A stretch of DNA of 27,674 bases, taken from positions 1-27,674 of the forward strand of contig JALHMH010000032.1 of assembly GCA_022844165.1 (NCBI GenBank), given 5' to 3'. Each line of letters starts with the position of its first letter. The first letter of the stretch is position 1. The translations under genes were made by a program, and so were the position numbers. The stretch comes from Lysobacterales bacterium (GTDB lineage: Bacteria > Pseudomonadota > Gammaproteobacteria > Xanthomonadales > SZUA-5). Under the pieces are notes generated by a model. The model saw nothing but the letters and a program-made list of their open reading frames with translations. It was not told the DNA's origin and ran no database searches. Of this stretch, positions 3,498 through 27,674 are shown piece by piece.

Positions 3498-5405
3498 TCA
3501 CTCAAAGCCGTTGGCGAAGACCGTGTTTCGGCAGGAATGAAAACGGACGCCGTTGGCGCCCTCGGCGGCAATCAGCGCGCCGTTGGCGAGATCGATATCC
3601 AAGACGCTGTCTGGTGTCGCCAGGTTGCCGATTCGAACCGGGGCTGTTGGTGTGGCGATGCTGGCGATCACGGTGCCCCAGAATGGGCCGGCTGCGACGT
3701 ACAAACGTGTGCCATCGATCGCCAGACCACCGGCCAGGCCAGGGAAGATATCGAGCGTTCCTGCCGCGACGATGGCCGCTGGATTGGCGATGTTGAGCAC
3801 GCGCACTTCGGCATTGCCATCGGCCACATAGAGAAAGTTGCCTTGCTGCGCCAGGTCGCGAACCGGCTGTCCGGTGATGAACTGGCCGAGCAAGCTGGGT
3901 GTCGGCGTTGCCGCATCCAACACCTCAATGCGATCGCCCTTCCCCACGTAGAGTCGATTGCCAACCGGTAGCACCGCCAACGCGCCGACGCTGTCGTTCG
4001 ACAACAAGCTCGGCGCGCTGGGTGTCGCAATGTCGTATGTGCGCAGACCACCCGGCGTGGCGATGTACAGGCGATTGCCCTGCACCGCCAGTTGATGCGC
4101 TGCGGTCGGCAGCGCCAGACTCGCAAGTTGCGACACCGCAGCCGGATTGGCGACATTCAAGACGCGCAGCGTCGATTCGTCGTTGAGCGAGCTGACGGCA
4201 TAGGCGATGTTGCCGCTGCTGGTGACGGCGTAGATGTTGGCGGAATCGTAGCGCCCGAGTAACGCCCCGCGCGGCTCACTGCTGTTGTCGAAAATGGCCA
4301 GGCCACGCGGAAACTGCGGCACATAGACACGCCCGTCGGCAGCATGCACCCTTTCGGAGGCGCCGCCAACGAGCAGATTCGACTGCACCGTCGGCGCCGC
4401 TGGTGTGCCCAGCCCATAAGCGCGAATGCCATTGCTGGTCGCCAGACGCGTCGGAACAAAGGCCGTGTTACCGAGGCCCGCGACGCCATCGACACTCGCC
4501 TGGTCGGAGACCGTCGATACCAGCATCGGACTCGCTGGATTGGCAATGTTGAAAGTGCGCAGACCGCCTGCGCCCGCGGCCGTCACCAGGTGCCCGTTGA
4601 CCAGCGCGCCGTGCGAATAACTGCCAACAACGCCGATCGAGCCCAGCAAGGTGGGCGTAGGACTGCCGATATTCAAAATGCTGTAACCCTGGTCGCGCCG
4701 TGCCACGTAGGCGCGAAAACCGTCGAGCAACAGATGCGACGCACCCGTCGCCGGATAGCTGGCGACTTGCTGCATATTGCCCATGCCGAGCAGTTCCCAC
4801 ACGGTGACGCCCTCGGCGTCGTCCGCCACATAAAGGTAAGGCGCGGTTGGCGAGACCTTGACGTCGAACACAAAATCCGTGCCCGGCGTAACCACCTGCT
4901 GCAACAACACTGGTGCCGAAGGGTTAGCGATATTGATCGACGCGGGGCCTGCCGGGGTGATTGCGGCGTACAGCACGTTGCCGCTGATCGACAGCCCGCG
5001 GGGTATGCGGCCTTCCGGCACGGCATAACGGCTGAGCAAGGTGGGCTGCGTGCGATTGGCGATACTGACGATCGAGATCGTATTGCGTCGGTCGCTGACC
5101 GCCGCCAGCGCGCCGTCGGCGCGGATCGCAATGTGCGCAGCCGGGCCGGAGAGGCCGATCGCACCCAGGCGCACCGGCGCACTGGGATTGGCGATGTTGT
5201 AGAGCACAAGGTCAGCGCCTTCGCCCGAGAGCAGCAGCGACTGACCGCTGCCACTCCAGGTCTCCAGTGTGCGCACCGGCCCGTGGCCTTGGTGCACGAC
5301 CTCAAGTGGGCAGTTATCCAATGCCAGCAGTGGCGAGCTGGCGATCAGTGCGCTGATCAGGGTGATGAACTGCGAGCGCTGGCGGTAGCCGATTGAGCGT
5401 GGCAC
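3498..5405 (-). CDS. Secreted LVIVD-repeat beta-propeller protein with C-terminal TVFANGFE tail
   Basis: Many repeats of the type LYVAD..G(L/V)R(V/T)(L/F/Y)NIANPAAP. Likely GTG start at 5405 with a CAGGAG RBS, followed by a signal peptide (FITLISALIASSPLLA). Confidence 0.88.
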   Translation of the reverse strand: MPRSIGYRQRSQFITLISALIASSPLLALDNCPLEVVHQGHGPVRTLETWSGSGQSLLLSGEGADLVLYNIANPSAPVRLGAIGLSGPAAHIAIRADGALAAVSDRRNTISIVSIANRTQPTLLSRYAVPEGRIPRGLSISGNVLYAAITPAGPASINIANPSAPVLLQQVVTPGTDFVFDVKVSPTAPYLYVADDAEGVTVWELLGMGNMQQVASYPATGASHLLLDGFRAYVARRDQGYSILNIGSPTPTLLGSIGVVGSYSHGALVNGHLVTAAGAGGLRTFNIANPASPMLVSTVSDQASVDGVAGLGNTAFVPTRLATSNGIRAYGLGTPAAPTVQSNLLVGGASERVHAADGRVYVPQFPRGLAIFDNSSEPRGALLGRYDSANIYAVTSSGNIAYAVSSLNDESTLRVLNVANPAAVSQLASLALPTAAHQLAVQGNRLYIATPGGLRTYDIATPSAPSLLSNDSVGALAVLPVGNRLYVGKGDRIEVLDAATPTPSLLGQFITGQPVRDLAQQGNFLYVADGNAEVRVLNIANPAAIVAAGTLDIFPGLAGGLAIDGTRLYVAAGPFWGTVIASIATPTAPVRIGNLATPDSVLDIDLANGALIAAEGANGVRFHSCRNTVFANGFE

Positions 5406-5437
5406 GACGAACTCCTGATTGCGGGGATTAATCGCAA

Positions 5438-5497
5438 ATACGAAAAACGTGGCGGCGAACCCATCACGTGATGGGATGGGCCACCGTTTCTCCGTAT
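5438..5497. promoter_or_regulatory. Candidate bidirectional ECF-type promoter
   Basis: Perfect palindrome CCCATCACGTGATGGG at 5460-5475. GTGATGGG-N17-CGTAT occurs on both + (CGTAT 5493-5497) and - (CGTAT 5442-5438). Confidence 0.65.
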
Positions 5498-5529
5498 GTC
5501 CGGTGAGCACATCCGGAAAGGACAGTCCC

Positions 5530-8421
5530 ATGACCGGTTTCTTGTGGCGCCACGCACGCGCGCTCTTGGCCGCACTGTTGGCAGCAGGCCTGGCCTGCCC
5601 AGCCGCATCTCAGTCGGTCGACGATCAATTCGCGCCGGCTGCCAATGGCGTCGTTTCCGTGGTTCGCGTCGATAGCAAAGGGCGTTTGCTGATTGGCGGG
5701 CTGTTCACGCAGATCGACGGCCAAAGCGCGCTGCGGATTGCGCGGCTGCATGCCTCAGGACGCCGTGACGAAAGTTTCCTCGCCAGCACGAACGATGACG
5801 TCGACGCGATCTTGCCGATCGGCGATCGCGTCTTGATCTCGGGCCAGTTCACCAACGCCAGCGGGCTGTCGCGCTCCCGTCTGGCGCTGCTCGACGACAA
5901 CGGCAATGCGGTGACCGCGGTCGCGCCGCAAGCCGATGACGACGTGACTTCATTGGCGCAAGGACTCGTCGCCGATAGCTATTTTGTGGGTGGCAGGTTC
6001 ACCACGATCAATGGCCAGCCGCGTCGGCGCATTGCGCGTCTGGTGGGCGGCAATCTTAATCTCGATCCCACTTTCGTCCCGCCAGCCCTCAGCGGTTTTG
6101 TGGACACACTCGCCGTGCAGCGCGATGGCAAGTTATTGGTTGGCGGCAGCTCGCTGCGGGTCACTGGCAACGAGGCTCCGGTGCTGCGACTCAACGCGGA
6201 CGGCAGTTTGGACACCAGCTTCGCCTTCGAAGGTGCTGGAAACAACGACTCTGTGAACAGCATCGCTGTCCTGAGTAACGGCAAAATCCTGGTCGGCGGC
6301 TTCATGGCGCTTGGCCATGTAGCGCGCTTGCATCCAGACGGCAGTCGCGATACCAGTTTCGTCCCGCCCGCCTTAAACCAAAGCGTCAGAGAGATCGCCG
6401 TACAGCCAGACGGACGCGTGCTGGTGGTCGGTAACTTCAGCAGCGTGGCCTTACGTGACCGTGTGATTCGCCTCAACGAAGACGGCTCACTCGATGCCGG
6501 ATTTGCGTCGCTGCTGAGCCCCTTTGGCACGGTCACGACGGTGGCGGTGCAGGCCAACGGCGGCGTGGTCATTGGTGGAGCGTTTACCGATGTCACTGGC
6601 TTGCCGCGCCTGCGTCTGGCACGGATCAGCTATCGCGGCCAGCTGGATGATCGACTCAACGCCTCTTTCACTGGCGGGCCGGTTGAAGTGGTTGCGGCAC
6701 AGCCCGATGGCAAGCTCCTGGTCGGCGGCGGGTTCAGCCATGTCAACGGCCAACTGAGGCCGTATCTGGCGCGCATCAACGTCAGCGGCAGCCTCGACGC
6801 CTCGTTCGCTGCGGCACCGAACAACGATGTGCGCGCGATCGCCGTTCTCGGAGATCGCAGCGTACTCATTGCTGGTGCGTTCAATCAGGTCAACAGCAGC
6901 GCGAGGCTGCGTATCGCCAAACTCACGTCCAGCGGAGTGCTGGACCCGAACTTCCAGGTCGATGTCGGCAACGGCACGCTGCACACGCTGGCGCTGCAGG
7001 ACGACGGCCGCATTTTGATCGGCGGCGGCTTCACCAGCATCGACGGCTCGGCACGCCAGGGCATTGCGCGCTTGAATGCAGACAGCTCTTTAGACACCAG
7101 TTTCGTGCCATTGCCGCTATCGAATTTCACTCGCGTGCGCGCCATTTCCGTGCGTGCAGACGATGTTTTTCAAGCGCCAGCGGGAACGATTTATCTGGGC
7201 GGCGAAACCGATGGCACCAACCGACTGGAGCGCCTGACCGCAAACGGCGGCCTTGATGGCAGTTTTTTCAGGATCAACACCAGCACTGTTTTCTCCATCG
7301 TCAGCAGTGGCTTCGGCCAGGTCAATTACGGTGCTATATCGGGGGCGAACACCTGCGGTCGCTTTCTGAGCACGACCACCGGCACCGGACCCAATTGCCT
7401 CGCGAGCCCGGATCTGCCTGTGTTGTCGTTCGTGAGATCGGTGGGTTTTGACTACTTTGCCGGCGGCGCGTTCACCACTTTGAGCGGCATTGCCCATCCG
7501 GGCCTGGTCCAAATCGTCACTGCGGGGGCTCCCGCCCAACTGAGCGACGATTTCGACTTTCCCATCACCGGTGGCACGGCCACGGTGAACAGCCTGCAAT
7601 TGCAGGCCGATGGCAAGCTCATCGTTGCTGGAGACTTCACCGCAGTGGGCGGGCAGGCGCGTACCAGCATCGCGCGGATCAGCGAAACGATTGGAACGGA
7701 TAACAACCCTGCGCCGTTGCTGCGCACGTCCGGTGTGGGCATCCAATGGGACCGTCTGGCCGGTACCGTGCGCTTCGTGCCTGGTGCCCTGACACCGGAG
7801 TTAGAGCGCGCGCCGATTCTCTTGATCAGCGAGACGTGCTGCAGCGATACCATGTTTACGCCAACGGCCGGCGCCCGCGCGACTCGCATCAACTTGGCCA
7901 CAGGTGAGTGGCAGAAGTCCGGCTTCGCGCCATCGCTAGACAAGTTCTATCTACGCTGGCGTTACCAGGTGAGTGATGGAAGGGGCGGGCTGAGTTTGTA
8001 CGAAACCCCGATCCACCGCTTTGCGCCACGCAGCCCGCAGCTTCAGTTCAACCCGATTCCCAACGCTGCGTCTAACACCGTCGTCTTCCCATCGGGGCCC
8101 ACGGGCACGACATCGGCACAGATTACGGTCACTCCATCGGATGGCGACGGCGGAACCTCGGCGCTCAGTTGTTCCATACAAAACGTCGCCGGGCCCGGCA
8201 GCTTCTCCAATCTGCGCTCGAACCCGAGCGGCTTTGCGTGGCAAAACAACGCCGGAAGCGTGAGGCTCGATTGCACGCGTTCAGCGCAAGCGACGGTGGG
8301 AACATTGGTCTGTGTACAAAGCTTCAGCGACGAAAGTCTATCCGTCGAGCATCGCTGGGGCCTGACGTGCCCGGCTGCGAGTAGCATCGTCGATTCCATC
8401 TTTACTTCTGGCTTTGAGTGA
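5530..8421 (+). CDS. Secreted delta-60-repeat (DUF5122-like) beta-propeller protein with C-terminal DSIFTSGFE tail
   Basis: Repeated AVQPDGKLLVGGxF...RIARLNADGSLDTSF units. ATG at 5530 with a GGAAAGGA RBS and a signal peptide. A Cys-containing beta-rich domain precedes the tail. Confidence 0.92.
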   Translation: MTGFLWRHARALLAALLAAGLACPAASQSVDDQFAPAANGVVSVVRVDSKGRLLIGGLFTQIDGQSALRIARLHASGRRDESFLASTNDDVDAILPIGDRVLISGQFTNASGLSRSRLALLDDNGNAVTAVAPQADDDVTSLAQGLVADSYFVGGRFTTINGQPRRRIARLVGGNLNLDPTFVPPALSGFVDTLAVQRDGKLLVGGSSLRVTGNEAPVLRLNADGSLDTSFAFEGAGNNDSVNSIAVLSNGKILVGGFMALGHVARLHPDGSRDTSFVPPALNQSVREIAVQPDGRVLVVGNFSSVALRDRVIRLNEDGSLDAGFASLLSPFGTVTTVAVQANGGVVIGGAFTDVTGLPRLRLARISYRGQLDDRLNASFTGGPVEVVAAQPDGKLLVGGGFSHVNGQLRPYLARINVSGSLDASFAAAPNNDVRAIAVLGDRSVLIAGAFNQVNSSARLRIAKLTSSGVLDPNFQVDVGNGTLHTLALQDDGRILIGGGFTSIDGSARQGIARLNADSSLDTSFVPLPLSNFTRVRAISVRADDVFQAPAGTIYLGGETDGTNRLERLTANGGLDGSFFRINTSTVFSIVSSGFGQVNYGAISGANTCGRFLSTTTGTGPNCLASPDLPVLSFVRSVGFDYFAGGAFTTLSGIAHPGLVQIVTAGAPAQLSDDFDFPITGGTATVNSLQLQADGKLIVAGDFTAVGGQARTSIARISETIGTDNNPAPLLRTSGVGIQWDRLAGTVRFVPGALTPELERAPILLISETCCSDTMFTPTAGARATRINLATGEWQKSGFAPSLDKFYLRWRYQVSDGRGGLSLYETPIHRFAPRSPQLQFNPIPNAASNTVVFPSGPTGTTSAQITVTPSDGDGGTSALSCSIQNVAGPGSFSNLRSNPSGFAWQNNAGSVRLDCTRSAQATVGTLVCVQSFSDESLSVEHRWGLTCPAASSIVDSIFTSGFE

Positions 8422-9005
8422 GCATGACCGTAACGCCTGCGCCAGACGAGTCCAGAGTGCCGATTACGATGCTGCTGCAAGAGATCGCGCGCGGCGACAG
8501 CCCGTCGGACGAGCGCATCGTGGGCGTCGTGGTGCAGGCCTTGGAGCGTTTGGCGCAGAAAGAAATGGCACAGCGCGGCGGCTGGCATGGACTGACTTTG
8601 GAGCCCACGGTGTTTGCGCACGACGCACTGCTCAAGATCGTCGACCAGCGCCATGCTTTTGCCAATCGCGGCCATTTTTTTGCCTACGCCACACAAATCA
8701 TGGTGCGCGCCATGATCGATTATCACCGCGCCCGTCACGCGCAAAAGCGCGGCGGCGAGGCAGCCCGGGTCAGTTTGTCTGAAGCTTTGCCGCTCGACGA
8801 TGTGGATCTGGACCACATGCCGCCGGCACTGGAAGCGCTTCAGGTGCTCGATGCGCGCAAAGCCGATGTGGTGCGCTTGCGCGTTTTTTGGGGCGCCACA
8901 ACCGAGGAGATCGCTGAGATCCTGGGCCTGTCGACAGCCAGCGTAGAGCGCGACTGGCGCTTCGCGAAGCGTTGGTTGGCGGTGCAACTGCGGCCAGCGC
9001 CATGA
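8418..9005 (+). CDS. ECF sigma factor, kinase-associated type (TIGR02999/ECF43-like)
   Basis: TLEPTVFAHDALLKI, FANRGHFFAYATQIM, AQKRGG, EEIAEILGLSTASVERDWRFAKRWL. The GTG start overlaps the upstream stop (GTGA); alternative ATG at 8424. Confidence 0.92.
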   Translation: MSMTVTPAPDESRVPITMLLQEIARGDSPSDERIVGVVVQALERLAQKEMAQRGGWHGLTLEPTVFAHDALLKIVDQRHAFANRGHFFAYATQIMVRAMIDYHRARHAQKRGGEAARVSLSEALPLDDVDLDHMPPALEALQVLDARKADVVRLRVFWGATTEEIAEILGLSTASVERDWRFAKRWLAVQLRPAP

Positions 9006-11794
9006 CCGACAAAGAACGCCATCTGCGCCTCGATTCGCTGTTTCACCAGCTCGTCGACTTGCCGCGCGAAGAAAGCGCCGCGCGCATCGTGCAGCTGCAA
9101 CAAGACGATCCCGTTCTGGCCGCAGCGCTGGCCGCCATGCTGACCGGTTCGCATGCGGCGGGCGAGCGCGCGCTCGACGATTTGGCGCGGCATGCCAAGG
9201 TGCTGGCCTTGTCGCCCGGCATGCCCGAGCAGATTGGTCCGTATCGCGTGCTGCGGGTGCTCGGCGAGGGTGGCATGGGCCGCGTTTACGAGGCCGAACA
9301 AACCTCGCCCGTGCAACGCCGCGTTGCGGTGAAGTTGACGCATGCGGGACTCGATAACGCTCGGGTGGTTGCGCGCTTTCACGGCGAACGCCAGGCGCTG
9401 GCGGTGCTCGATCACCCGAACATCGCGCGGATTTTTGAGGCCGGATCGCACAGCGATGGGCGGCCCTGGTTTGCCATGGAATTGATCGACGGAATCACGA
9501 TCACGCAGTGGGCGAAGGACCGCGATCTAGGCTTACGCGCACGGCTCGAACTATTGCTTCCCGTGTGCGATGCGATTGGCCACGCGCACCGCAAGGGTGT
9601 CATCCACCGCGACTTGAAGCCGAGCAACGTCCTGATCAGCGAGATCGACGGCAAGGCCGTTCCGAAGATCATCGACTTTGGCATCGCCAAAGCGCTGCAT
9701 GGCGACGCCCTCGATGCCACGCACGCCGGAGAACTGATCGGCACCCCCGAATACATGAGCCCGGAACAGGCCAGCTTAGGCGCGATCGATATCGACACGC
9801 GTTCGGATGTGTATGCGCTGGGGTTGTTGTTGTTCGAACTTCTGGTCGGTCAATTGCCGCTGACGCTGGCCGACTTGCGGCGGTTCGCGTTCGACGAAAT
9901 GTGCCGCCGCGTGCGCGAAGAAGAGCCGCCACGACCTAGCGCCGTGCTTAGCGCCAGTCGCCGCAGCGTGGGATCGATGTCCAGTGCCGAATGGGCACGC
10001 CGCGTACAAGGCGATCTGGACGCTGTCGTACTCAAGGCTCTGGCCAAAGATCGCGAACAACGCTACGACAGCGTTGCCGGATTGGCCGAGGATTTGCGGC
10101 GCTACTTGAGCGATCAGCCGGTGTACGCCACGCCGCCGAACTGGCGCTATCGCTTGCGCAAATTCGTCAGGCGCCACCGCGCTGCCAGCATCGCTGCCGC
10201 GGCGATTGCGCTGGCAGCGGTGATCACCTTGGCGATGGCAGTGCGCAGTTATTTCGCCGTACGCGAGGCGATGGCGCAAGCCACGCAAGCACAGCAGCAA
10301 TCCGAGGCCAGCAATCGATTTTTGCTGAGCCTGTTCCGTGCGGCCGACCCACGTGCCGAACCTGGTGCTGATCCAACGGCCCGTGACTTGTTGGCACGTG
10401 GCTTCGATCAGCTCAAGGCCGACACTGAACTATCGCCGGAAACCCGGCTGCGCATGCTGGAGCGTCTGGCTGAAGCCGCCTATGCACTTGGCGACTACGC
10501 GCAGGCGCAGCGCTCGTTCGAAGAGGCTCTTGCACTACACGAAGACCTGGCGACCACAGATGCCTTTCGCCGCGCCAGCGTTTTCGATCGCCTGGGCGTC
10601 ATCGCGCGCGATCGTGGCGATATGCCCGGCGCCATCGCGCGCCATCGCGAGGCCTTGGCGCTGATGCAGCGCGCCGGGTTGACCGACAGCCCAGACAGCT
10701 CACGACTGCACAGCAACCTCGGGATCGCCCTGCGGCTCAGCGGCGATCTGAGGGGTGCGTCTGCGCAGTACGACATCGCCATTGCCCTGCTCAGCGGCGA
10801 GCCCCAACCGAGCCAGAAGCTCGCCAGCGCCTTGCTCAATCGCGCAGCAGTGCTGCAGGACCAGGGAAATCTGGACGCGTCGATAGCCACATTGAATGAG
10901 GCAATGGTGCAGTTCCAGAGCCTGTTGCCACCCGAACATCCCAATTTTGCGGTGCTCTACAACAACATGAGCATGGTGCAGCGCAATGCCGGCAACTTGC
11001 ACGAGGCGCTCGCGCTGATTGAACAGTCGCGCGCCAACGAAGCGCTGAATCTGCCGGAGTCGCACCCCGACCGCGCTGACAGTTTGCACAACAAAGCCGC
11101 TGTCTTGATCCGATTGGGTCAGATCGAGGCCGCAAGGGAGAGTCTCAATGCGGCGCTGGCGCTGCTGGCGCAAACCCTGCCGCCAGACAATCCGCGCACC
11201 GCTGTGCATCGCGACTCGCTCGCGGAAATCGATCTGTTGGGCGGCAACTACGCCGCAGCCAGCAGCCGCTTACGAGCGCTCATCGACGAGTTGGAAGACA
11301 CACCGGCAACTTTGCGGCAACGCATCGTTTCGCTGCGCAAACTGGCCATGGCCGAGCGCGGCGCCAACCGTTGGCACGAGGCGACCACGGCCGCGCAACA
11401 AGCGATCGATCTGGCAATCCGCAACGAACTTCCTGCTGAGCAGGCGCTTGCTTTGTTGCTGCAAGCGCTGATCGAACTTGATCGGCAACAGCCCGACCGC
11501 GCTGCGGAGCGTTTCAACGCCGCGTTGAACCTGCTGCCCGAATGCGCTCGCGGCCCTTGCACACTCGACCAGGGCAGCTCGCATCTGCTCCGGGCGCAAT
11601 ACCTCGCGCGCAGCGGCGCAACAGCGGCTGCTCTGACCACGCTGCAATACGCTATCGAGCACCGCCGTTGGTCGGCATCGATACTGTCTCACCCAGACCT
11701 CAATTCCCTGCGCGCGCATCCGCGGTGGTCCGAGTTGGAAAGCGCGCTGAAAGGGCGGACGGCGCCTGAAAGCAAAACCGACGAACGTTCATGA
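9002..11794 (+). CDS. Hanks-type Ser/Thr protein kinase with TM helix and C-terminal TPR repeats
   Basis: GEGGMG, VAVK, HRDLKPSN, DFG and GTPEYMSPE motifs; TM segment ASIAAAAIALAAVITLAMAV; TPR-like repeats. ATG at 9002 overlaps the sigma-factor stop (ATGA). Confidence 0.95.
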   Translation: MTDKERHLRLDSLFHQLVDLPREESAARIVQLQQDDPVLAAALAAMLTGSHAAGERALDDLARHAKVLALSPGMPEQIGPYRVLRVLGEGGMGRVYEAEQTSPVQRRVAVKLTHAGLDNARVVARFHGERQALAVLDHPNIARIFEAGSHSDGRPWFAMELIDGITITQWAKDRDLGLRARLELLLPVCDAIGHAHRKGVIHRDLKPSNVLISEIDGKAVPKIIDFGIAKALHGDALDATHAGELIGTPEYMSPEQASLGAIDIDTRSDVYALGLLLFELLVGQLPLTLADLRRFAFDEMCRRVREEEPPRPSAVLSASRRSVGSMSSAEWARRVQGDLDAVVLKALAKDREQRYDSVAGLAEDLRRYLSDQPVYATPPNWRYRLRKFVRRHRAASIAAAAIALAAVITLAMAVRSYFAVREAMAQATQAQQQSEASNRFLLSLFRAADPRAEPGADPTARDLLARGFDQLKADTELSPETRLRMLERLAEAAYALGDYAQAQRSFEEALALHEDLATTDAFRRASVFDRLGVIARDRGDMPGAIARHREALALMQRAGLTDSPDSSRLHSNLGIALRLSGDLRGASAQYDIAIALLSGEPQPSQKLASALLNRAAVLQDQGNLDASIATLNEAMVQFQSLLPPEHPNFAVLYNNMSMVQRNAGNLHEALALIEQSRANEALNLPESHPDRADSLHNKAAVLIRLGQIEAARESLNAALALLAQTLPPDNPRTAVHRDSLAEIDLLGGNYAAASSRLRALIDELEDTPATLRQRIVSLRKLAMAERGANRWHEATTAAQQAIDLAIRNELPAEQALALLLQALIELDRQQPDRAAERFNAALNLLPECARGPCTLDQGSSHLLRAQYLARSGATAAALTTLQYAIEHRRWSASILSHPDLNSLRAHPRWSELESALKGRTAPESKTDERS

Positions 11795-11992
11795 TGGCGC
11801 GGATTCTCGACAATCAAGGGAAATCTGCTACGAAACGGCCTTGACTTTTGCAGCCCATGAAGTTCCGAAGTCTGTCTTTGGCCCTGTCACGCCATCCCGC
11901 GCGTAGCGAACCGAATGCCGTCGGGCCCGGAATGCTCCGAGCGCCTTTGGCTCCCAAGGCAGCAACATCCGTCGCTCACGGCGTTCTCAGGC

Positions 11993-13873
11993 TCAGGCGT
12001 CCAGCGCGGCCCATCGAGCGTACGCTTGATCGAGTGCCGATTGCGCATCGCTGAGGGCTTGCTGATCGGCGACGATCGCGGCGCCAGGGCGCTGGAAGAA
12101 CGATGGCTGGTTCATCGCTGCCGTACGGGACGCGATATCGGCTTCGAGCGATTCGATCCTGGCCGGCAGAAGTTCGAGTTCGCGCTGCTCTTTGAAGCTG
12201 AGTTTGCGCCGCGTAGCGGCCGACACCGCATTCTGCGGCACCTCGGCAGACTGCCCGGAAGACAGCGATGGAGGCGTGCTCAAAGCGACCGGCTTCGATG
12301 CGCTCGCTTCGCGGCGCTGACGCTCCCAATCACTGTAGCCACCGACGTACTCGCCGACCCGACCATCGCCCTCCAGCACCAGCGTACTGGTGACGACTGC
12401 GTCCAGAAAAGCGCGATCGTGGCTGACCAATAGCACGGTGCCCTGATACTCGCTCAGCTGTTCCTCCAGCAACTCCAGGGTCTCAACATCGAGGTCGTTT
12501 GTGGGCTCATCAAGCACCAGCAGGTTCGAAGGCCGGGCGAACAAGCGGGCCAGCAGCAACCGATTGCGTTCGCCACCGGACATGCGCGTAATCGGGGCGC
12601 GAGCCCGTTCCGGCGAAAACAGAAAATCCTGCAGGTAACCGAGTACGTGCACCCGCCTGCCGCCGATGTCGATGAACTCCTGGCCCTCGGCCACGTTATC
12701 GAGCGCACTCCAGTCTTCGCGCAGTGTGGCTCGGTATTGGTCGAAATAGGCGATTTCCAATGCCGTGCCCGGTTGAACTTCGCCGCTCGTCGGCATGAGT
12801 TCGCCAAGTAAGGTGCGCAGCAGGGTCGTCTTGCCGCTGCCGTTCGGCCCAACGATGCCGACACGATCACCGCGCAGGATGTTGGTCGAAAACGCGCGGA
12901 TCAGTGTGCGACCGCCGAGGGTCACGGACACGTCTTTGGCACGTAACACGCGCTTGCCGGACTTTTCGCCCTCAGCGATTTCGATTTTCGCTGTACCCTG
13001 GACATTGCGCCGCTCAGCGTACTGCCGGCGCATCGCTTTGAGCGCGCGGACACGGCCCTCGTTACGGGTGCGCCGCGCCTCAATGCCCTGGCGGATCCAG
13101 ACTTCCTCTTGTGCCAGCTTCTTGTCGAACAATGCGCGCTCTTGCGCCTGTGCGTGTGCCCGTTCGGCTTTGCGTCGCAGATAGTTCTGCCAATCGCCGG
13201 GCCAACTCGTCACCTGTCCACGATCGATCTCGACGATGCGCGTCGCAAGCGTCTGCAGAAAAGCGCGGTCATGGGTCACGAACACCAGTGCACCACGGTA
13301 ATCGCTGAGCATTCCTTCAAGGGCTGCGATCGCGTCGATATCCAGGTGATTGGTGGGCTCATCCAAGAGCAATACATCTGGCTGCAGCAGCAGCGACTGC
13401 GCCAACAGAACGCGGCGCTTCATGCCGCCGGAAAGGGCACCGAAGTCCTGCTCGGGCAGAAGCCCCAGACGCTCGACGGCCTGCAAGGCCCGAGCGTCGA
13501 GCGTCCACGCACCCGCCATGTCGATGGCTTCGTGCAGCGCGCTCATTGCCGCTTCGTCACCGCGTTCGGTGGCGTGGTGATAGTCCGCCAGAAGCTGCCC
13601 GGCATCGCCCGCGCCACCGGCGATCACATCAAACACAGAGCCTTCAAGATCGCGCGGAACCTCCTGGCGCATGAGTGCGACGCGCGCTTCGCCGCGCACG
13701 ATGCGCCCGTCGTCCGGTTGAATCTCGCCGGCGATCAACTTGAGCAGGGTAGATTTACCTTCCCCATTGCGACCAACCAACGCGATTCGCTCGCCGCGCT
13801 CGATCGTCAGTGTCGCATTATCGATCAGCGGCGGACCGCCGACGCTGTGGGTCAGGGATTGCAGGGTTAACAT
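11993..13873 (-). CDS. uup: ABC-F family ATPase Uup
   Basis: Two ABC domains (GRNGEGKST, GPNGSGKTT; LLDEPTNHLD, VLDEPTNDLD), linker EEVWIRQGIEARRTRNEGRVRAL, and a C-terminal KLSFKEQREL coiled coil. Confidence 0.93.
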   Translation of the reverse strand: MLTLQSLTHSVGGPPLIDNATLTIERGERIALVGRNGEGKSTLLKLIAGEIQPDDGRIVRGEARVALMRQEVPRDLEGSVFDVIAGGAGDAGQLLADYHHATERGDEAAMSALHEAIDMAGAWTLDARALQAVERLGLLPEQDFGALSGGMKRRVLLAQSLLLQPDVLLLDEPTNHLDIDAIAALEGMLSDYRGALVFVTHDRAFLQTLATRIVEIDRGQVTSWPGDWQNYLRRKAERAHAQAQERALFDKKLAQEEVWIRQGIEARRTRNEGRVRALKAMRRQYAERRNVQGTAKIEIAEGEKSGKRVLRAKDVSVTLGGRTLIRAFSTNILRGDRVGIVGPNGSGKTTLLRTLLGELMPTSGEVQPGTALEIAYFDQYRATLREDWSALDNVAEGQEFIDIGGRRVHVLGYLQDFLFSPERARAPITRMSGGERNRLLLARLFARPSNLLVLDEPTNDLDVETLELLEEQLSEYQGTVLLVSHDRAFLDAVVTSTLVLEGDGRVGEYVGGYSDWERQRREASASKPVALSTPPSLSSGQSAEVPQNAVSAATRRKLSFKEQRELELLPARIESLEADIASRTAAMNQPSFFQRPGAAIVADQQALSDAQSALDQAYARWAALDA

Positions 13874-17975: not shown

Positions 17976-18029
17976 GTCTCATCGTTGTGCGCCTTGCACC
18001 AACGCCATTCGCGACGCCAGGGCCGGCTC

Positions 18030-18608: not shown

Positions 18609-18810
18609 TTCTAGAACTCCAGATCGTGAGTAGACGGACAATTTCCGCGAGTGGACCCAAGTCTAAACCGAGCGTGGTGCCGTGCAGCGATCTCGCGCGA
18701 CGAACGCACCGAAACAGACGCCGTTGGGTGCACGACGATGGTTTTGCTGGGAGTACAGGCCGAAGAGACGGTATCGGGCGAAGGACCGGGACATTTGAAT
18801 CCGCCTGCGC

Positions 18811-19707: not shown

Positions 19708-19809
19708 CTTACCCTCCGTCACTGCGACTCACGTTTGCCTCGCCATCATAGGACGACGCGCCAGCGTCTCCTATTGCGATCTTCGCGTCAGGCGGTCTTT
19801 TCGACTAAC

Positions 19810-19830
19810 CTGTACAGTACGTACATGTAC
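19810..19830. promoter_or_regulatory. Probable toxin-antitoxin operator (overlapping GTAC palindromes)
   Basis: CTGTACAG, GTACGTAC and GTACATGTAC overlap 13 nt upstream of the antitoxin ATG. TGTACA is the known YefM operator core. Confidence 0.65.
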
Positions 19831-19843
19831 CGGGCATACTCAT

Positions 19844-20134
19844 ATGGATGCGCTCTCGCTCACGGAACTGAGGCAAAACCTGTTCCAGATTGCAGATGGT
19901 GTGATCGACACCGGCGAGGCTGTGGTGATCGAGCGCCGGGGTGTACGGCTGAGGTTGGTGAGGGAAGATGCGGCCATTGGCGGCAGATTGGCGCGACTGA
20001 AGGCGCAACAGCTTGTGATCGGCCCGCCACTGAAACCCGACGAATCACCCGCGCTGTGGTCGGAACCGCCGTTGTCTGCGGTGGCCGAAACGGTTCCTAC
20101 CTTCGGCGCTCCGGCGAAGAGGCCAAAACGGTGA
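19844..20134 (+). CDS. Phd/YefM-family antitoxin
   Basis: MDALSLTELRQNLFQIADGVIDTGEAVVIERRG is a Phd-type N-terminus; the gene overlaps the toxin start. Confidence 0.85.
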   Translation: MDALSLTELRQNLFQIADGVIDTGEAVVIERRGVRLRLVREDAAIGGRLARLKAQQLVIGPPLKPDESPALWSEPPLSAVAETVPTFGAPAKRPKR

Positions 20135-20505
20135 TCATGCTCGACACGCATATCGCGGTGGGTTTGTTTCAGGGCTCAACGGCTGGCCTCAGTCGAAAGG
20201 CCTTGGCATTGATCGATCGTGAACCCGCTTACCTATCGCCAGCCGTTTCGCTGGAACTGCAATTGCTCAAAGAAATCGGGCGATTGCGCTTGGGCGCCCA
20301 CGAGGTCCTCGGTTATCTCGCACGTACATTGGCCGTGCATCAGGCGAACGACCGCTTCTCCGACATCGTGCAGCATGCTATGGCACTCAGTTTCACACGA
20401 GATCCCTTCGATCGGCTGATTACTGCGCACGCGGCAATGCTCAAAGCAACGCTGATCACGCACGATGCGCTCATCCATCGACACTATCGGCAGGCCATGC
20501 AATGA
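20131..20505 (+). CDS. PIN-domain toxin (VapC family)
   Basis: MLDTH, SLELQLL, TRDPFDRLITAHA and LITHD retain the conserved acidic residues. GTGA overlap with the antitoxin (alternative ATG 20137). Confidence 0.9.
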   Translation: MIMLDTHIAVGLFQGSTAGLSRKALALIDREPAYLSPAVSLELQLLKEIGRLRLGAHEVLGYLARTLAVHQANDRFSDIVQHAMALSFTRDPFDRLITAHAAMLKATLITHDALIHRHYRQAMQ

Positions 20506-22211: not shown

Positions 22212-23080
22212 GTTTAGACAAGCGACGTCTCGCTGCATCTTTCGGCGCGGCAGCGGCGCACTATGATCAGGCGGCGGTGTTGCAAGCAACGGTGGGCGAC
22301 GAGTTACTCGAACGTGCCGCTGCGTTGGCGCAAAAACCGGCACGTATTCTCGACGTGGGTGCCGGCACGGGCCGACTGACCGCGCGTTTGCGTAAACGCT
22401 TTGCCGGCAGCGAGGTCATCGCACTGGACCTGAGCAACGGCATGTTGCGCGCCGCCAGGCGCCACGCTGGCTGGTTCAAGCCCCTGCCACGGGTGCAGGC
22501 CGATGCCGCCGCGTTGCCGTTAGCCGACGCCAGTATCGACCTGTTGTTCTCGAATCTGTGCGTTCAATGGTGCGACGATTTGCCCGCCACGCTCATGTCG
22601 TTTCGTCGTGTGCTGAAGCCCGGTGCGTGGCTGGTCTTCACGACCTTCGGGCCAGACACGCTCAAGGAGTTGCGTGGCGCCTTTGCGACCGTCGACGACC
22701 ATGCGCATGTCCATCGTTTTCTCGATATGCACGATGTCGGCGACGCCGTGCTCGCTCAAGGATTCGCCGACCCGATGCTCGATGTCGAGCGCTACACGCT
22801 AACGTATCCAGACACTATTGCGTTGATGCGCGACTTGAAAGCGATCGGCGCGCGCAACGCGCATCAGGATCGCCCACGTGGGCTCATGTCGCGGCGCGCG
22901 CTGCAGTTGTTAGAAGCAGCCTACGAGCCGCACCGCACCAACGGCTCTCTGCCGGCCAGCTACGAGGTCGTTTTCGCGCAAGCTCAAGCGCCGCAGCCGG
23001 GTGCACCGCTCAAAACTGCCGGCGGCGATCTGGCGAGTTTCAGCATTGACGAGATGCGCGCTCGCATGCGCAAGCGTTAG
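22208..23080 (+). CDS. bioC: Malonyl-ACP O-methyltransferase BioC
   Basis: FGAAAAHYDQAAVLQ, LDVGAGTG, FSNLCVQW, TFGPDTLKELR and FLDMHDVGD motifs; ATGA overlap with aceK. Confidence 0.92.
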   Translation: MSLDKRRLAASFGAAAAHYDQAAVLQATVGDELLERAAALAQKPARILDVGAGTGRLTARLRKRFAGSEVIALDLSNGMLRAARRHAGWFKPLPRVQADAAALPLADASIDLLFSNLCVQWCDDLPATLMSFRRVLKPGAWLVFTTFGPDTLKELRGAFATVDDHAHVHRFLDMHDVGDAVLAQGFADPMLDVERYTLTYPDTIALMRDLKAIGARNAHQDRPRGLMSRRALQLLEAAYEPHRTNGSLPASYEVVFAQAQAPQPGAPLKTAGGDLASFSIDEMRARMRKR

Positions 23081-23088
23081 TCCGGAGA

Positions 23089-23742
23089 TCAATCGCCAAC
23101 CGGCTCACGAGCGACCAGCAGCGCTGCCTGGGTGCGTTGGGTCAGGTCCAGTTTGCGCAGTAAGTTGCTGACGTAACCTTTGACCGTACCCTCGGTCAGG
23201 ACCAGTTCGGCGGCGATCTGGCGGTTGCTCAGGCCCCGGCCCAGCAGTTTCAGAACGGATCGCTCTCTTTGACTGAGCACCGCATAACGATCGACGACCG
23301 GTTTGCGGCGCAACAGCGCCACGACCTGTGCGTGCATTCCCTGGTGCAACCACGGTTGGCCGCTGGCAACGGCACGAATGGCCGCCAGCAAATCGTGGCG
23401 CTGCACGTCCTTGAGCAGATAGCCAATGGCACCGGCCTGCGTCACCTCGACCAAAGCCTGATCTTCGGCATAGCTGGTAAAAATGATGATGTTGCACAAC
23501 GGCGCCACGTGGCGCATCTGGGTCACCAGTTGCGCCGCCGACATGCCGGGCATTTTCAGATCGACGATGGCCACATCGATCGCGTGCCGCCGGAGGATGG
23601 CCAGCGCCTCGGTCCCGTCGCCAGCCTCTGCAACCACTTCCATGCCCGGTTCGTCTTCGCACAAGGCGCGAACGCCTTCGCGAACGATGGCGTGATCGTC
23701 GACCAGGAGAATGCGAATTGGCGTCGCGTCGAATGTGGTCAT
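23089..23742 (-). CDS. NarL/LuxR-family response regulator
   Basis: LLVDDH, phospho-Asp in IVDLKMPG, GYLLK, and a LuxR HTH (LSNRQIAAELVLTEGTVKGYVS). Confidence 0.95.
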   Translation of the reverse strand: MTTFDATPIRILLVDDHAIVREGVRALCEDEPGMEVVAEAGDGTEALAILRRHAIDVAIVDLKMPGMSAAQLVTQMRHVAPLCNIIIFTSYAEDQALVEVTQAGAIGYLLKDVQRHDLLAAIRAVASGQPWLHQGMHAQVVALLRRKPVVDRYAVLSQRERSVLKLLGRGLSNRQIAAELVLTEGTVKGYVSNLLRKLDLTQRTQAALLVAREPVGD

Positions 23743-25394
23743 ATCGGCAGTTTGCGGTCGTGTCGCTTCAATGTGGCCAGTACCTCGAAACCATGGGGCT
23801 GGAGGACGCGCAGGCTCAGCGCGCCACCCAGTCGCTCCAAACGTTGGCGCATGCTGCGAAAACCATAACCGTCGGGCTTGTCGCTGCTCGTTCCGCGGCC
23901 ATTGTCGCGCATGCTGACCTTGACCAGCACCGCATCGACCCTGGCCACCAGTGCCATTTGAGTTGCGCCAGAGTGGCGGACGAGGTTAGACGCCGCCTCC
24001 TGGAAAACACGATACAGTGCCTGCTCGTGGTCCAACGATTGAGGCACATACGCCGTGAAGTCGCTTTCGACCCGGATGTGCGGCGGCACCAGGACGCCCA
24101 ACAACTTCGGCAACGCGGCACCCAGCCCACCATCTTTGAGTCGGTCCAGGCCAACCGGCGCAATCGCGCGCCGCGATCGTGTGCTCTGATTCTGGCGCCC
24201 CGACGCCGATAGCTCATGCAACAGGGTACGCATTTCCGCCACAGCCAGTTGCGCAAGTTCAGCCACTCGCGCAGAAGCGCGCAGACCTTCCGCCTGGCCT
24301 TTTTGCCAGGCCGAAGGTAGCGCCTGAGCCAGCAGGCTGATACCCGACAATGCCTGCGTGACCGAATCGTGCAGCTCATACGCCAATCGCTGACGCTCTT
24401 CGAGGATGGCGTTGTTCTGCTGCTCGCTGACGAGACGGGCATTCTCGATGGCCAATGCCAAATGCCGGCCGATCGCTTCGAGCGTCAGTTGATCCAACTC
24501 ATCGAACGGGCCATCACCCTCGACATTCAGCACGCCTAACAACTGATCGCCCGCCAACAAGGGCACTGCCAGTTCGGCGCGACTCGGATCGGGAACGGGT
24601 GGTGCGATGTAGCGCGGGTCGCGCTTGACATCGTTGGCCAAAATGGTCGTCCGCGTGCGCGCTGCGGCGCCCATGATCCCTTGATCGAGGCGAATCCGAT
24701 CCTCGTGATGGATGCGCTTGTAACCGCCACCGCGTGCGACAATCACCAGGACGTTTGGGTCCTCCGCATCGATCAACGGAATGTCGACATTCGGATACTC
24801 CAGGACCTCGTGGATTGCATCCGCTGCCAGTTGCAACGTCATCATCAGTGGATTGCCGCCACGGTTGATGAGCTGACCGACGTTGACGACCAACTGCAAT
24901 CGCGCCAGACGGCGACGCTCGCGGGTCATTCGTGTCGCATTGCGGATCGCCAGCCCGGCGTGTCCGCAAGCGACTTGAAGAATATGGAGCACCTCCGGGG
25001 CAAGCGGTTCGGCGCTCTCGACGGCCGGCACGATGGCCAAAACGCCCAACTGCAACTCGCCTGCGATGATCGGTAAGGCCAGCACGAGCTTTCCAAACAG
25101 CCGGCAATGGCAGGGCAGCGATTGACCGCGCAGGCCAGCGAGAAGCTTCTCAGCACTCATGCTCGAATGCTCTGAATGGGCGGATTCGAACTGCAACACA
25201 TCCGACCACCCAGATGTCTGATCGCCACGACCAACACCGATGGTGACCTGGCGCGCATCAATAAGATCGGCCACGCATTTCGCGACGCAGCTCAACGTTT
25301 CGTGCAAGCCAAGTTCGTTCGCGAGGCTCGTTGCTAAACTCGCCAGCACAACGTCGGAGCGTCGGCGCGTGATATTCGATACTGAGGCTGGCAT
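23739..25394 (-). CDS. Soluble two-GAF sensor histidine kinase (HisKA_3)
   Basis: Two GAF-like regions, EERQRLAYELHDSVTQ H-box, QEAASNLVRHSGA N-box and DNGRG. No obvious TM helix. Overlaps the response-regulator start. Confidence 0.92.
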   Translation of the reverse strand: MPASVSNITRRRSDVVLASLATSLANELGLHETLSCVAKCVADLIDARQVTIGVGRGDQTSGWSDVLQFESAHSEHSSMSAEKLLAGLRGQSLPCHCRLFGKLVLALPIIAGELQLGVLAIVPAVESAEPLAPEVLHILQVACGHAGLAIRNATRMTRERRRLARLQLVVNVGQLINRGGNPLMMTLQLAADAIHEVLEYPNVDIPLIDAEDPNVLVIVARGGGYKRIHHEDRIRLDQGIMGAAARTRTTILANDVKRDPRYIAPPVPDPSRAELAVPLLAGDQLLGVLNVEGDGPFDELDQLTLEAIGRHLALAIENARLVSEQQNNAILEERQRLAYELHDSVTQALSGISLLAQALPSAWQKGQAEGLRASARVAELAQLAVAEMRTLLHELSASGRQNQSTRSRRAIAPVGLDRLKDGGLGAALPKLLGVLVPPHIRVESDFTAYVPQSLDHEQALYRVFQEAASNLVRHSGATQMALVARVDAVLVKVSMRDNGRGTSSDKPDGYGFRSMRQRLERLGGALSLRVLQPHGFEVLATLKRHDRKLPI

Positions 25395-25417
25395 TGGGCT
25401 CCCGTGTGCTGATCCGC

Positions 25418-25447
25418 TACCCGCCTGCCGATACCGGCAGGCGGGTA
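25418..25447. repeat. Perfect 13-bp GC-rich hairpin
   Basis: TACCCGCCTGCCG-atac-CGGCAGGCGGGTA between the CHRD-protein stop and the kinase start; no U-tract. Confidence 0.7.
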
Positions 25448-25467
25448 CGGCGATGCGCGTCTTTCAA

Positions 25468-27674
25468 TTATTCGAAGTTGTCGAAGAACATCGCGTCCGT
25501 GATCTGACCACGGATCTCGCCCTCGGGGAACTCCGCGGAGGCCACTTGCGCGTACCACAGGCCATCGATCAATTGTTGCGCCTGTGCCGGGGTGATGGCA
25601 AACGGTCCAGCCACGATCTGGTCGGTGGCCTGCCCCGATACCGGCAGCGTAATCGTTGCGATTCGGGCGCCAGCAACGCCACGTTGCGCGGGCCCAAAAA
25701 TCCCCACGTCTACACTTGCGCCCGGCACGCCTTCTCCCGTCAGGCCAGCGTAGATCAACGTGATGAATACCTGATCCCGCGCGCCATCCAATCGGACCGT
25801 GACATAACCGCCAGCCAGTGTTTCAGCGCGCGGCACCACTTGACGCCCGGACATTGGTCCGTCGAATACACGGTCCAACCGAATCTGCCCGCGAATTTCG
25901 CCCGCCGGATGATTCTGCGAATGGATGTTGAAGTACCAAAGGCCCGCTTTCAGATCGCTGACCTGCTGCGGCGTCACGGCAAACACGAATGGACCTAACT
26001 GCGCCGCTGTGCCGCCCAATCCGGTCAGGTTGAATATCGGTGGCGCATTGCTGCCCGCGGGCGCCGGTCCGTGGATATGCCCAACGGTACTTGGACTGCC
26101 AAGACCGGTGAAATTCAACTGCACGGTAATTTCAGTTTCGTCCGCATTGAGCTGCACCGTTCCGCGGCCAGAGGCGCTCGTTACAACCGGAGGAACTTCC
26201 TGCGCACCATCGAGACGAGCGCTGAAACTGCCGCCGCTGCGCGTGCTCTCCGTGAACTCGAAATTGCTGTGCGCAATCGCGCCAAAGCCAGGCGTCAAGA
26301 TGGGCGAATTGGGTGTTGCTGCCGACGTGCCGCTCACGCGCAGTCGGTCGCCCAGTGGTGTGGATTGTGGGCCACCATCCAGTTGCTGCTGTACACTCGT
26401 CAGCGGCTGTGTCTCGACCAGGTCGTCGCCGCCCGTCGCATTGAGTTGCAGCCGCTCGATTCCCGCGCTCTCGAGCATGAATACCGTCGGCTGCAAACGC
26501 ACGAACATGAAACGCGCACCGATCTCGCTGATCCGGAAGTGTTCGCTGGCGCCTGCTGCATTGACTAACAGCGTGTCGTTACCCAACCCACCCTCGTTGA
26601 AGTCGTCGCCATCACCCGGATTCCAGATCAGCTGATCGTCGCCTGGGCCGCCGTCCATACGCTCAATGGTGCCGACAGGATTGCTGCCGGCACGCAACGA
26701 ATCGTTGCCTTGACCACCATTCAACACATCAAGACCAAACGAACCAATGAGGGTGTCGTTGCCCTCGTCACCGTTCAGTTCCAGTGCAATCAGACCCGCA
26801 GGCAGGCTGACCGCGGAAATATTGTCGTCGCCGCCCAGACCATTGACCTCCAGGGTCTCAACCGTGGTCAGGTCGATACCAAATGGGACCAGATTGCTAC
26901 GATCGAAGCGCACGGCCACGGGCGCCGTGCCCGCCGCGATCGTGAAGATATCGCCCGCGCCGGCGCCGTTGACAATCTGCCGATCATTGCCATCGCCGCC
27001 CAGCACCACATCGGTGTTGTCGCCGTTGTTCCAGACATTGACGTCATCGCCCGTGCCAAGATCGATGGTGTCGTTGCCGGGGTTCGCATCGACAGAGTCG
27101 TTTCCGATACCGCCGGTGATGACATCAATGCCGGAGGAGCCGACGATGGTGTCGTCGCCATCGCCACCGTTGAGTTCCAAGGTGATCAAACCCGTGCGCA
27201 GCGTGTTGGCATCGACGCTGTCGTTACCGCCATTGGCATTCAGGCGCAGCAGCTCGGTTTCGGTGATATCGACAAAAAACGGCGCGGGATTGCCGTTCAA
27301 CGTGGTGCGCTCGAAACGCACGGTGCCGGAACTTACCGGTTGTTCGCGAATGAAGAACACTTCGCCGCCACCGCCGCCGACGATCAGCGCCGTGTCGTTG
27401 CCGGTGCCGCCGATGTTGATGTCATCGTCCTTGCCCGGATTCCAGATCATCACGTCGTCACCGTCACCACCCATCACGGTATCGACTGTGCCGACCGGAT
27501 TGTCGTGGCCATCGAGTGTGTCGTTACCGATGCCGCCATCGATGAAATCCGCGCCCTGGCTGCCGACGATCGTATCGTCGCCATCGCCACCGTTGAGTTC
27601 CAAGGTGATCAAACCCGTGCGCAGCGTGTTGGCATCGACGCTGTCGTTACCGCCATTGGCATTCAGGCGCAGCA
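25468..27674 (-). CDS. Large RTX-type Ca-binding repeat protein with two C-terminal CHRD domains and a DAMFFDNFE tail, 5'-partial
   Basis: GGxGxDx(I/L) nonapeptides; CHRD motifs LDGAQEVPPV..HIHGPA..GLWYFNIHSQNHPAGEIRGQI plus a second GEIRGQI. The frame stays open to the window edge. Confidence 0.92.
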   Translation of the reverse strand, partial: LRLNANGGNDSVDANTLRTGLITLELNGGDGDDTIVGSQGADFIDGGIGNDTLDGHDNPVGTVDTVMGGDGDDVMIWNPGKDDDINIGGTGNDTALIVGGGGGEVFFIREQPVSSGTVRFERTTLNGNPAPFFVDITETELLRLNANGGNDSVDANTLRTGLITLELNGGDGDDTIVGSSGIDVITGGIGNDSVDANPGNDTIDLGTGDDVNVWNNGDNTDVVLGGDGNDRQIVNGAGAGDIFTIAAGTAPVAVRFDRSNLVPFGIDLTTVETLEVNGLGGDDNISAVSLPAGLIALELNGDEGNDTLIGSFGLDVLNGGQGNDSLRAGSNPVGTIERMDGGPGDDQLIWNPGDGDDFNEGGLGNDTLLVNAAGASEHFRISEIGARFMFVRLQPTVFMLESAGIERLQLNATGGDDLVETQPLTSVQQQLDGGPQSTPLGDRLRVSGTSAATPNSPILTPGFGAIAHSNFEFTESTRSGGSFSARLDGAQEVPPVVTSASGRGTVQLNADETEITVQLNFTGLGSPSTVGHIHGPAPAGSNAPPIFNLTGLGGTAAQLGPFVFAVTPQQVSDLKAGLWYFNIHSQNHPAGEIRGQIRLDRVFDGPMSGRQVVPRAETLAGGYVTVRLDGARDQVFITLIYAGLTGEGVPGASVDVGIFGPAQRGVAGARIATITLPVSGQATDQIVAGPFAITPAQAQQLIDGLWYAQVASAEFPEGEIRGQITDAMFFDNFE
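27152..27674. repeat. Identical 100-bp intragenic direct repeat, period 423 bp
   Basis: 27152-27251 equals 27575-27674; the second copy is cut by the window edge. Confidence 0.9.

Follow-up and report, generated by a model that had tools for sequence, protein, structure and literature searches.

A nine-residue C-terminal tail on exported proteins of unrelated fold, a candidate sorting signal in one order of Gammaproteobacteria

Three exported proteins of unrelated fold end in the same nine-residue peptide in a 27,674-nucleotide stretch of a Lysobacterales genome (GenBank assembly GCA_022844165.1, contig JALHMH010000032.1, positions 1 to 27,674; hereafter the window, meaning this whole stretch). 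We found that this tail, whose consensus in a logo of 51 exact copies reads D-x-[LVIM]-F-[AR]-[NDS]-G-F-E followed by stop, closes about 1-2% of the open reading frames (ORFs) of the host genome, is gained and lost as a module, and is concentrated in one order, with a longer form in a distant clade. We lean toward the view that the cell envelope reads it as a signal for sorting or retention, most plausibly tied to type II secretion or surface display.

The three window proteins are an LVIVD beta-propeller exoprotein (3498..5407, minus strand; longest ORF 3498-5531; PF08309, E 1e-22), a delta-60 or DUF5122 beta-propeller exoprotein (5530..8421, plus strand; ORF 5419-8421; PF17164, E 2e-92, and TIGR02608, E 5e-62) and an RTX-repeat protein with two CHRD domains (25468..27674, minus strand; ORF 25468-27672; PF07452, E 9e-45, and PF00353, HemolysinCabind, E 2e-18). 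Their translations end exactly as the original prediction, made from the sequence alone, had read them: NTVFANGFE in the LVIVD protein (3501..3527, minus strand, then a stop at 3498-3500), DSIFTSGFE in the delta-60 protein (8392..8418, plus strand, then a stop at 8419-8421) and DAMFFDNFE, a rare D-N-F-E variant, in the RTX/CHRD protein (25471..25497, minus strand, then a stop at 25468-25470). The same prediction held that the folds differ and that a membrane anchor is lacking; the domain matches uphold the former, and no hydrophobic stretch follows the motif in any of the three. It had assigned signal peptides to the two complete proteins, and both have one; the third gene, followed past the window to C32:28434, also has a signal-peptide-like start (MYIRRFAAIGVLLALSSPAYAA), so that the count rises to three. 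One further window ORF (stop to stop, at least 60 aa) ends in FE, and this 71-aa frame lacks the motif.

From the sequence around its candidate starts, the LVIVD gene probably begins at GTG 5405, which has AGGAG in front, rather than at ATG 5531. The GTG start yields a normal LVIVD signal peptide and a divergent intergenic region of ~120 bp, and the ATG start would clash head to head with ATG 5530, the probable start of the delta-60 gene. The last 177 residues of the LVIVD protein, tail included, recur almost unchanged at C53:24612-25145 (plus strand), which may reflect a recent duplication or a repeat in the assembly.

The tail is far more frequent at C-termini than expected. Among the 21280 stop-to-stop ORFs of 100 aa or more in the host genome (G000; 4.68 Mb in 59 contigs), 52 end in F-x-x-[GN]-F-[ED]. 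After overlapping ORFs were removed, 46 of 3761 ended in the motif, against an expectation of 0.05 from composition or 0.16 from the internal motif rate, an excess of 300- to 800-fold; a proteome-wide search had been put forward with the original prediction as its check, and terminal enrichment is what it returned. The corresponding DNA pattern with a stop codon gave 43 sites in this genome and 0 in the reversed control, with one of the 43 ending in TGG and hence having no stop. Among the 51 tails, F(-6), F(-2) and E(-1) occur in all 51, G(-3) in 49 and D(-9) in 27, and the logo has no conservation upstream of -9. Position -7 is taken by L (22), V (16), I (6) or M (5) and position -5 mainly by A (34) or R (8), and position -4 is always N (33), D (11) or S (7), the last as in the delta-60 protein. 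The center is N-G or D-G in 42 of the 51, and Asn replaces Gly at -3 in two.

Selection works on the tail as protein and not as DNA. Codon use within the tails is mixed (TTC 33 and TTT 18; GAG 31 and GAA 20), the stop codon behind them is TGA in 22, TAG in 15 and TAA in 14, and we found no nucleotide conservation downstream of the tail genes of the host genome. Since synonymous codons are free, all three stops are used and the downstream DNA is unconserved, the constraint must lie on the peptide. An explanation by chance, by annotation artefact or by a terminator, a repeat or some other element of the DNA or RNA is hardly credible in the face of these features, of the excess given above and of reversed controls that reach 0-5 sites per genome where the motif reaches 12-118, and we count it as already refuted.

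The proteins that carry the tail look secreted. Of the 57 carriers with 200 aa or more, 51 have a signal-peptide-like N-terminus, versus 1202 of 2793 other ORFs (odds ratio 11), by a crude home-made heuristic that over-calls and flags 43% of all ORFs; within this limit, the enrichment on secreted-type proteins agrees with the proposed export function. Carriers have a median length of 723 residues, compared with 324 over all ORFs. By Pfam, the 57 include enzymes, namely M14, M28, two S8 subtilases, three reprolysin-like metalloproteases, endonuclease I, an esterase, CotH and a PQQ sugar dehydrogenase (GSDH), as well as repeat or adhesin types with FG-GAP, sortilin/BNR, DUF5650, DUF4394, Ig-like, cadherin-like, Calx-beta and beta-helix domains; 22 have no Pfam match at E 1e-5. 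The carrier set is thus a typical exoproteome of many unrelated families.

Comparison of orthologues shows that the tail is gained, lost or swapped for known anchors as a module. In 16 LVIVD orthologues, 30-81% identical, F672, G675 and F676 of the motif are invariant, the linker ahead of it differs by 0-6 residues, and some sequences append 1-3 residues after GFE; 15 orthologues retain the tail or a near variant of it. An AlphaFold2 model of the LVIVD protein (mean pLDDT 85.3) has its last strand ending at residue 667 and gives residues 670-677, which are the tail, a pLDDT below 50 and no secondary structure, so that the tail is predicted to be an exposed, disordered appendage beyond the last folded domain. 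More distant LVIVD homologues hold a type IX secretion system (T9SS) C-terminal domain (CTD; PF18962), FlgD_ig, a dockerin or a hydrophobic-plus-basic tail at the same place, which bears out a logic of exchangeable anchors and is in line with the T9SS analogy of the original prediction. For endonuclease I, we used the nuclease domain and tail of one carrier as a query against 51 genomes, of which 25 matched, and examined 30 loci. The tail or a variant ends 14 of these, including three in which 194-329 residues of Ig- or cadherin-like domains intervene and the tail is still last (IFADGFED, IFGNGFE and LFVDGFEG, each followed by stop). Three loci from the tail-free genomes G118, G102 and G024 end in CQLAN or CHLAN with no tail; six loci have a different C-terminal domain and no tail, five are short paralogues without a tail alongside a tailed one, and two were unreadable.

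Mapping the motif across 249 genomes of the order, we found that the pattern with a stop codon occurs tens of times per genome in families f1 (24 of 24 genomes), f3, f4, f5, f6, f9 and f10, almost never in f2 (2 of 33 genomes) and in small numbers in f7, f8 and f12. Without the stop requirement, in 129 genomes at least 90% complete, the rich families have 12-118 sites, and slightly extended tails reveal more carrier lineages (f7 g29 and g23; f8 g15, g24 and g45; f12 g19, g31 and g41) as well as a single f2 genome, G134, with 68 sites. Otherwise f2 stays at background (9 of 10 sampled genomes; g9, g20, g35, g37, g42, g50 and g53), as do f12 g27, g34, g55, g57, g60 and G077, and f8 g54 and others. 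The f7 lineage g14 (L060, L134 and L135) carries a variant, hF.DRFE or hF.DRLE (FSDRFE or FSDRLE), with Arg where Gly is elsewhere near-invariant and 2-3 further residues ending in P or D; it wrongly looks tail-poor because the DNA patterns miss this variant. In the rest of the class, 301 genomes of about 215 families, none rises above background (at most 2 sites with a stop and 13 without, controls alike; the sample includes four unpublished genomes at background, G284, G506, G362 and G516). The original prediction had associated the tail with Xanthomonadales proteins, and its concentration in one order over a class-wide background agrees with that.

A scan of named genome records for the LVIVD protein gave four loci. 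In two Wenzhouxiangellaceae metagenome-assembled genomes (MAGs) the protein ends in IFEDGFETQP and IFFDRFEAED, and in a MAG labelled Alcanivoracaceae (L061, genome G550) it ends in FMFENGFE. The last of these MAGs is identical in coordinates and scores to our genome G009, which is placed in family f10 of the window's order; label and placement disagree.

A long form of the tail is found in a distant clade. In a MAG of 8.8 Mb labelled Acidobacteriota (G547), the LVIVD protein ends in LFADGFESGDTSSWSATVQP before the stop, and the genome has 200 motif sites versus 0 in the control. The pattern F.DGFE[ST]G occurs at 15-162 sites in 32 of 41 genomes drawn as relatives of G547, with one hit overall in the control. 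Its consensus is hF.DGFESGDTS.W, with an optional S..P after it, and it is C-terminal in 7 of 8 and in 26 of 30 examined occurrences, with 7-15 residues beyond GFE. The name of this clade is the label of one genome record, and the clade is not among our class sample.

From these data we infer a sorting or retention function, a route and a dedicated reader. The tail would be a short linear tag placed at the very end of Sec-exported proteins, mostly of extracellular type, where it would hang, exposed and unstructured, off the last folded domain. After the protein has crossed the inner membrane, the tag would most likely be read by a dedicated protein, which would pass the cargo to an outer-membrane step, with Xps type II secretion as the obvious route in this order, or alternatively would hold it at the cell surface. 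Whether all this amounts to an unrecognised Gram-negative sorting pathway, with a 9-residue anchor-less tag, a long form of 14-20 residues in a second clade and 50-200 proteins per genome, is a more tentative matter, and we offer it as a possibility that we favor less than the signal itself.

Several observations weigh against a dedicated C-terminal signal. The motif lies 1-10 residues before the end, nearly always 1-4, in 13 more ORFs, in extended forms such as GFES, GFEG, GFESP, GFEEPR and similar, and the long form of the distant clade is not strictly terminal either. The stricter pattern [LIVM]F.[NDS]GFE has 19 non-terminal copies, of which nine are near-terminal and two follow a signal peptide, and some eight separate one domain from another, each with a P/G/T-rich linker after it; placement directly after the signal peptide is seen in two proteins of the host genome and one of G550. 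The crudeness of the signal-peptide heuristic counts on the same side, as do the results of the search for a reader given below. A PDZ or TPR ligand that depends on a free carboxylate needs its motif at the very C-terminus; here, 50 exact termini stand beside the N-terminal, internal and extended copies. These copies suggest that a free carboxylate may not be essential, which would speak for a reader that binds the peptide, or for an enzyme that cleaves it, rather than for a strict clamp on the C-terminus.

A cleaving enzyme would make the motif a site of processing or ligation. A peptidase or transpeptidase of the envelope would cut it, for example after N/D/S at -4, GFE or GFESGDTS.W.. would be the leaving group, and the new C-terminus might be joined to an acceptor on the cell surface, as by T9SS PorU or sortases. 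The stretch after GFE is indeed variable or dispensable (0-4 residues in the order, 7-14 in the long form) and the stretch before it constant, and the internal copies sit at domain boundaries ahead of P/G/T linkers. However, Ser stands at -4 in seven of the 51 tails, Gly(-3) changes to Arg or Asn in whole lineages (DRFE and DRLE in f7 g14, DNFE in the window), and the N-terminal copies fit no leaving-group logic. The one clan-CD transpeptidase candidate that we examined, Peptidase_C13 (PF01650), was rejected, as it is present in the host genome and in the tail-free G013 and was not found in the tail-rich G547, G550 and G548. We regard processing as unlikely.

A reader was also sought around the type II secretion system (T2SS). 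PilQ and an orphan GspD are encoded in the host genome, as is a complete Xps-type cluster at C3:210351-221733 (C3:209514-229366 with its flanks; loci L111 and L112). In tail-bearing genomes, a gene for an XrtH-associated membrane protein (NF041730, E 1.5e-46) lies 5' of this cluster, and a lipoprotein, a 558-aa exported lectin-like protein, a PpiC-type isomerase and a Wzm/Wzt-like glycan-export block lie 3' of it, after xpsD; four tail-free genomes have the T2SS core without those flanks. The 558-aa protein belongs to a "cell surface protein" family with more than 4000 homologues and no Pfam model; one homologue is in a record named Ahniella affigens. Its predicted structure (pLDDT 82) has an N-terminal lectin-like beta-sandwich, with TM1070 as the top match (Z 9.0, rmsd 2.5, 105 aligned), galectins at Z 4-5 and nothing below E 0.016 in Foldseek.

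Found in 39 of 54 genomes, the 558-aa protein follows tail presence in f2 and f12, and its synteny with the T2SS is confined to tail-bearing genomes, the low-tail G006 and the tail-free G077. Yet it also occurs in G029, G047, G073 and G077, which have few or no tails, and was not found in the long-form G547. Moreover, the unrelated control NF041730 (41 of 55 genomes) has the same profile: all nine f2 negatives and four of the five f12 negatives lack it. Since the control matches and low-tail genomes also carry the protein, the profile does not discriminate and makes no case for the 558-aa protein, with its neighboring lipoprotein, as the tail reader. Most simply, the profile reflects shared ancestry, in that the core of f2 and f12 lost several surface-protein systems together. 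The phylogenetic profiling for an envelope partner that the original prediction had suggested thus produced a lead no better than its control. An XpsL-like component of the T2SS occurs in 51 of 54 genomes, tail-free ones included, and because the Xps system is kept in tail-free relatives, the tail is no general requirement of Xps. Neighbor analysis, the profile of the 558-aa lead and the Peptidase_C13 search found no reader protein.

With no reader found, a passive element needs to be weighed. The tail might act without a dedicated reader, through an N-G or D-G turn, two aromatic and two acidic residues, either shielding the C-terminus from tail-specific proteases or sticking to surface lipopolysaccharide or divalent cations. 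The acidic terminus of all 51 tails, the central N-G or D-G of 42 and the tolerated N-terminal placement are in keeping with this. However, nine positions kept over hundreds of genomes and dozens of folds exceed the needs of protection, orthologous proteins of relatives manage without the tail, and the all-or-none pattern among lineages suggests a partner that can be lost, so that we consider a purely passive role quite unlikely. By analogy, the tail might also serve as the first strand of a ConA/MAM-like jelly roll (strand complementation), an idea drawn only from its resemblance to internal "...SENFDSG..GW" domains and to the known starts of such folds.

The genes next to the delta-60 gene bring in a further possibility. 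Directly 3' of it lies a gene for an ECF sigma factor of the PF07638 type (8418..9005, plus strand; PF07638, E 7e-37), which overlaps by 34 bases with a gene for a Ser/Thr kinase with one transmembrane (TM) helix and a tetratricopeptide repeat (TPR) domain (8972..11794, plus strand; Pkinase, E 9e-36, and TPR_12, E 2e-35), the TPR domain being predicted to face the periplasm. A PF07638-type sigma factor adjoining a transmembrane Hanks-type kinase makes this an ECF43-like pair, which is regulatory context rather than part of the tail. The PknS/EcfK pair of Xanthomonas citri, an ECF43-type sigma factor with a Hanks-type kinase, is a reported example of this regulatory type in the order (PMC13147305); the window pair is alike in having a PF07638 sigma factor and a transmembrane kinase, and the likeness concerns neighbors that are linked to tail genes by adjacency only.

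The host genome has 44 kinase-TM-TPR paralogues (for example, at C8:112202-115147, C55:16816-19446, C3:141610-144330 and C9:51303-54260), often with a PF07638 sigma factor, and they are enriched among the neighbors of tail genes: 16 of the 44 are no more than 6 kb from a tail gene, 13 of these no more than 1.5 kb. TPR domains are peptide binders, and such kinases could sense the tail in the periplasm, coupling exoprotein load to transcription; activation of DegS and sigma-E by the YxF C-termini of unassembled porins would be the model for such a regulatory ligand. Besides the adjacency, this idea draws on the distant G547 (L058), which repeats the window layout of an LVIVD-tail gene divergent from an ECF sigma factor (52% identical) and kinase (39%), and on PF07638 matches that number 16-48 in tail-rich genomes versus 1-10 in f2 negatives. 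However, sigma counts also follow genome size and phylogeny (13 in G077, which has no tails; 4 in G004, with 23 motif hits), about 50 of 65 carriers have no adjoining kinase, one common ligand would leave 44 separate kinases unexplained, and adjacency may mean only that the pairs control neighboring exoprotein genes. In 33 tail loci of other genomes, the kinase was the only recurring neighbor family, in two of them; kinase orthologues were on contigs equally long as those with LVIVD orthologues. A complex prediction that paired a 36-residue tail fragment with the TPR domain of the window kinase (score 0.01, mark 0.32) speaks neither for nor against binding. A regulatory ligand is quite improbable as the role of the tail, and a sorting or retention signal remains the reading we prefer.

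The original prediction had placed the machinery outside the window, and none of the window genes resembles tail-handling machinery: the others are, by sequence, a soluble double-ATPase of the ABC-F type (11993-13873) and CdsA-like, RadA-like, Crp, MBL, AceK, methyltransferase, and GAF histidine kinase and response regulator genes. Histidine kinases, response regulators and a RAYT-like repeat gene also recur as neighbors of tail genes. The window begins with a 5'-truncated copy of such a repeated gene (3-683, plus strand; no Pfam match), which from its sequence looks like a transposase-like or RAYT-like mobile gene; seven copies lie near tail genes, the full-length ones near-identical and the copy on C42 more divergent.

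What selects a folded protein for passage through the outer membrane, or for exposure on it, has long been asked of Gram-negative bacteria, and we know of no linear signal for type II secretion. If the tail is a signal and its reader feeds Xps, it would be the first linear targeting signal for that pathway. A tiny, transplantable tag would mark the whole exoproteome in hundreds of environmental genomes and would provide a one-line predictor of secreted and surface proteins in these lineages, as well as, if portable, a handle for secretion or display. Natural controls are at hand in orthologues and sister lineages with and without the tag. Even as a regulatory ligand or processing site, the tail would be a proteome-wide feature undescribed in Pfam and NCBIfam.

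No known family covers the tail. The C-termini of the window proteins drew no match from Pfam-A or NCBIfam 20.0 at E up to 1, although nine residues may be too short for HMMER filters, and eight 70-residue long-form C-termini had no Pfam or NCBIfam match at E up to 10. A full-text search for the motif and for sorting-signal keywords, supplementary files aside, found no publication on the tail. Among known signals, the T9SS CTD of Bacteroidota (PF18962/TIGR04183) is alike in tagging, at the C-terminus, tens to hundreds of enzymes and adhesins that differ in fold and are exported by Sec. It is, however, a folded domain of 70-100 residues that is read by PorU/PorV and removed, in contrast to nine conserved residues predicted to be disordered, and no T9SS CTD model matched the three window proteins (Pfam and NCBIfam) or the 57 carriers (Pfam).

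PEP-CTERM, IPTL-CTERM, GlyGly-CTERM and LPXTG are likewise lineage-restricted C-terminal tags on many surface proteins. These exosortase, rhombosortase and sortase signals need a motif, a transmembrane helix and a basic cluster; the GFE tails lack this tripartite build, since 51 stop at GFE and 13 shortly after it, with no hydrophobic run. The host genome does have about a dozen IPTL-CTERM-like tails from two overlapping heuristic scans, about 6-8 of them convincing by eye, with an IP.. motif, a hydrophobic helix and RR (for example, C4:123445-125772, C18:74909-78229, C18:78393-80966, C25:50126-54157 and C56:17700-18656). They represent a second, classical sorting signal beside the GFE tail, and one IPTL-type protein and one tail protein have an N-terminal domain in common.

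Type I (RTX) secretion does not fit the RTX/CHRD protein, which has a signal-peptide-like start and no transporter beside its gene. The C-terminal YxF of outer-membrane proteins, which is the beta-signal for BAM and a ligand of the DegS PDZ domain, resembles the tail as a short C-terminal peptide with an aromatic residue, and its reading takes place in the periplasm. That signal ends beta-barrels in an aromatic residue, unlike the tail, in which Glu is terminal in 51 of 51 copies and the carriers are soluble enzymes and propellers. The closest logic is that of the eukaryotic peroxisomal signal PTS1 (-SKL) and the endoplasmic reticulum signal -KDEL, in which a few terminal residues without an anchor are read by a soluble receptor on unrelated proteins. 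These belong to another kingdom and other compartments and have no homology to the tail, which in addition allows short extensions and, rarely, an N-terminal placement.

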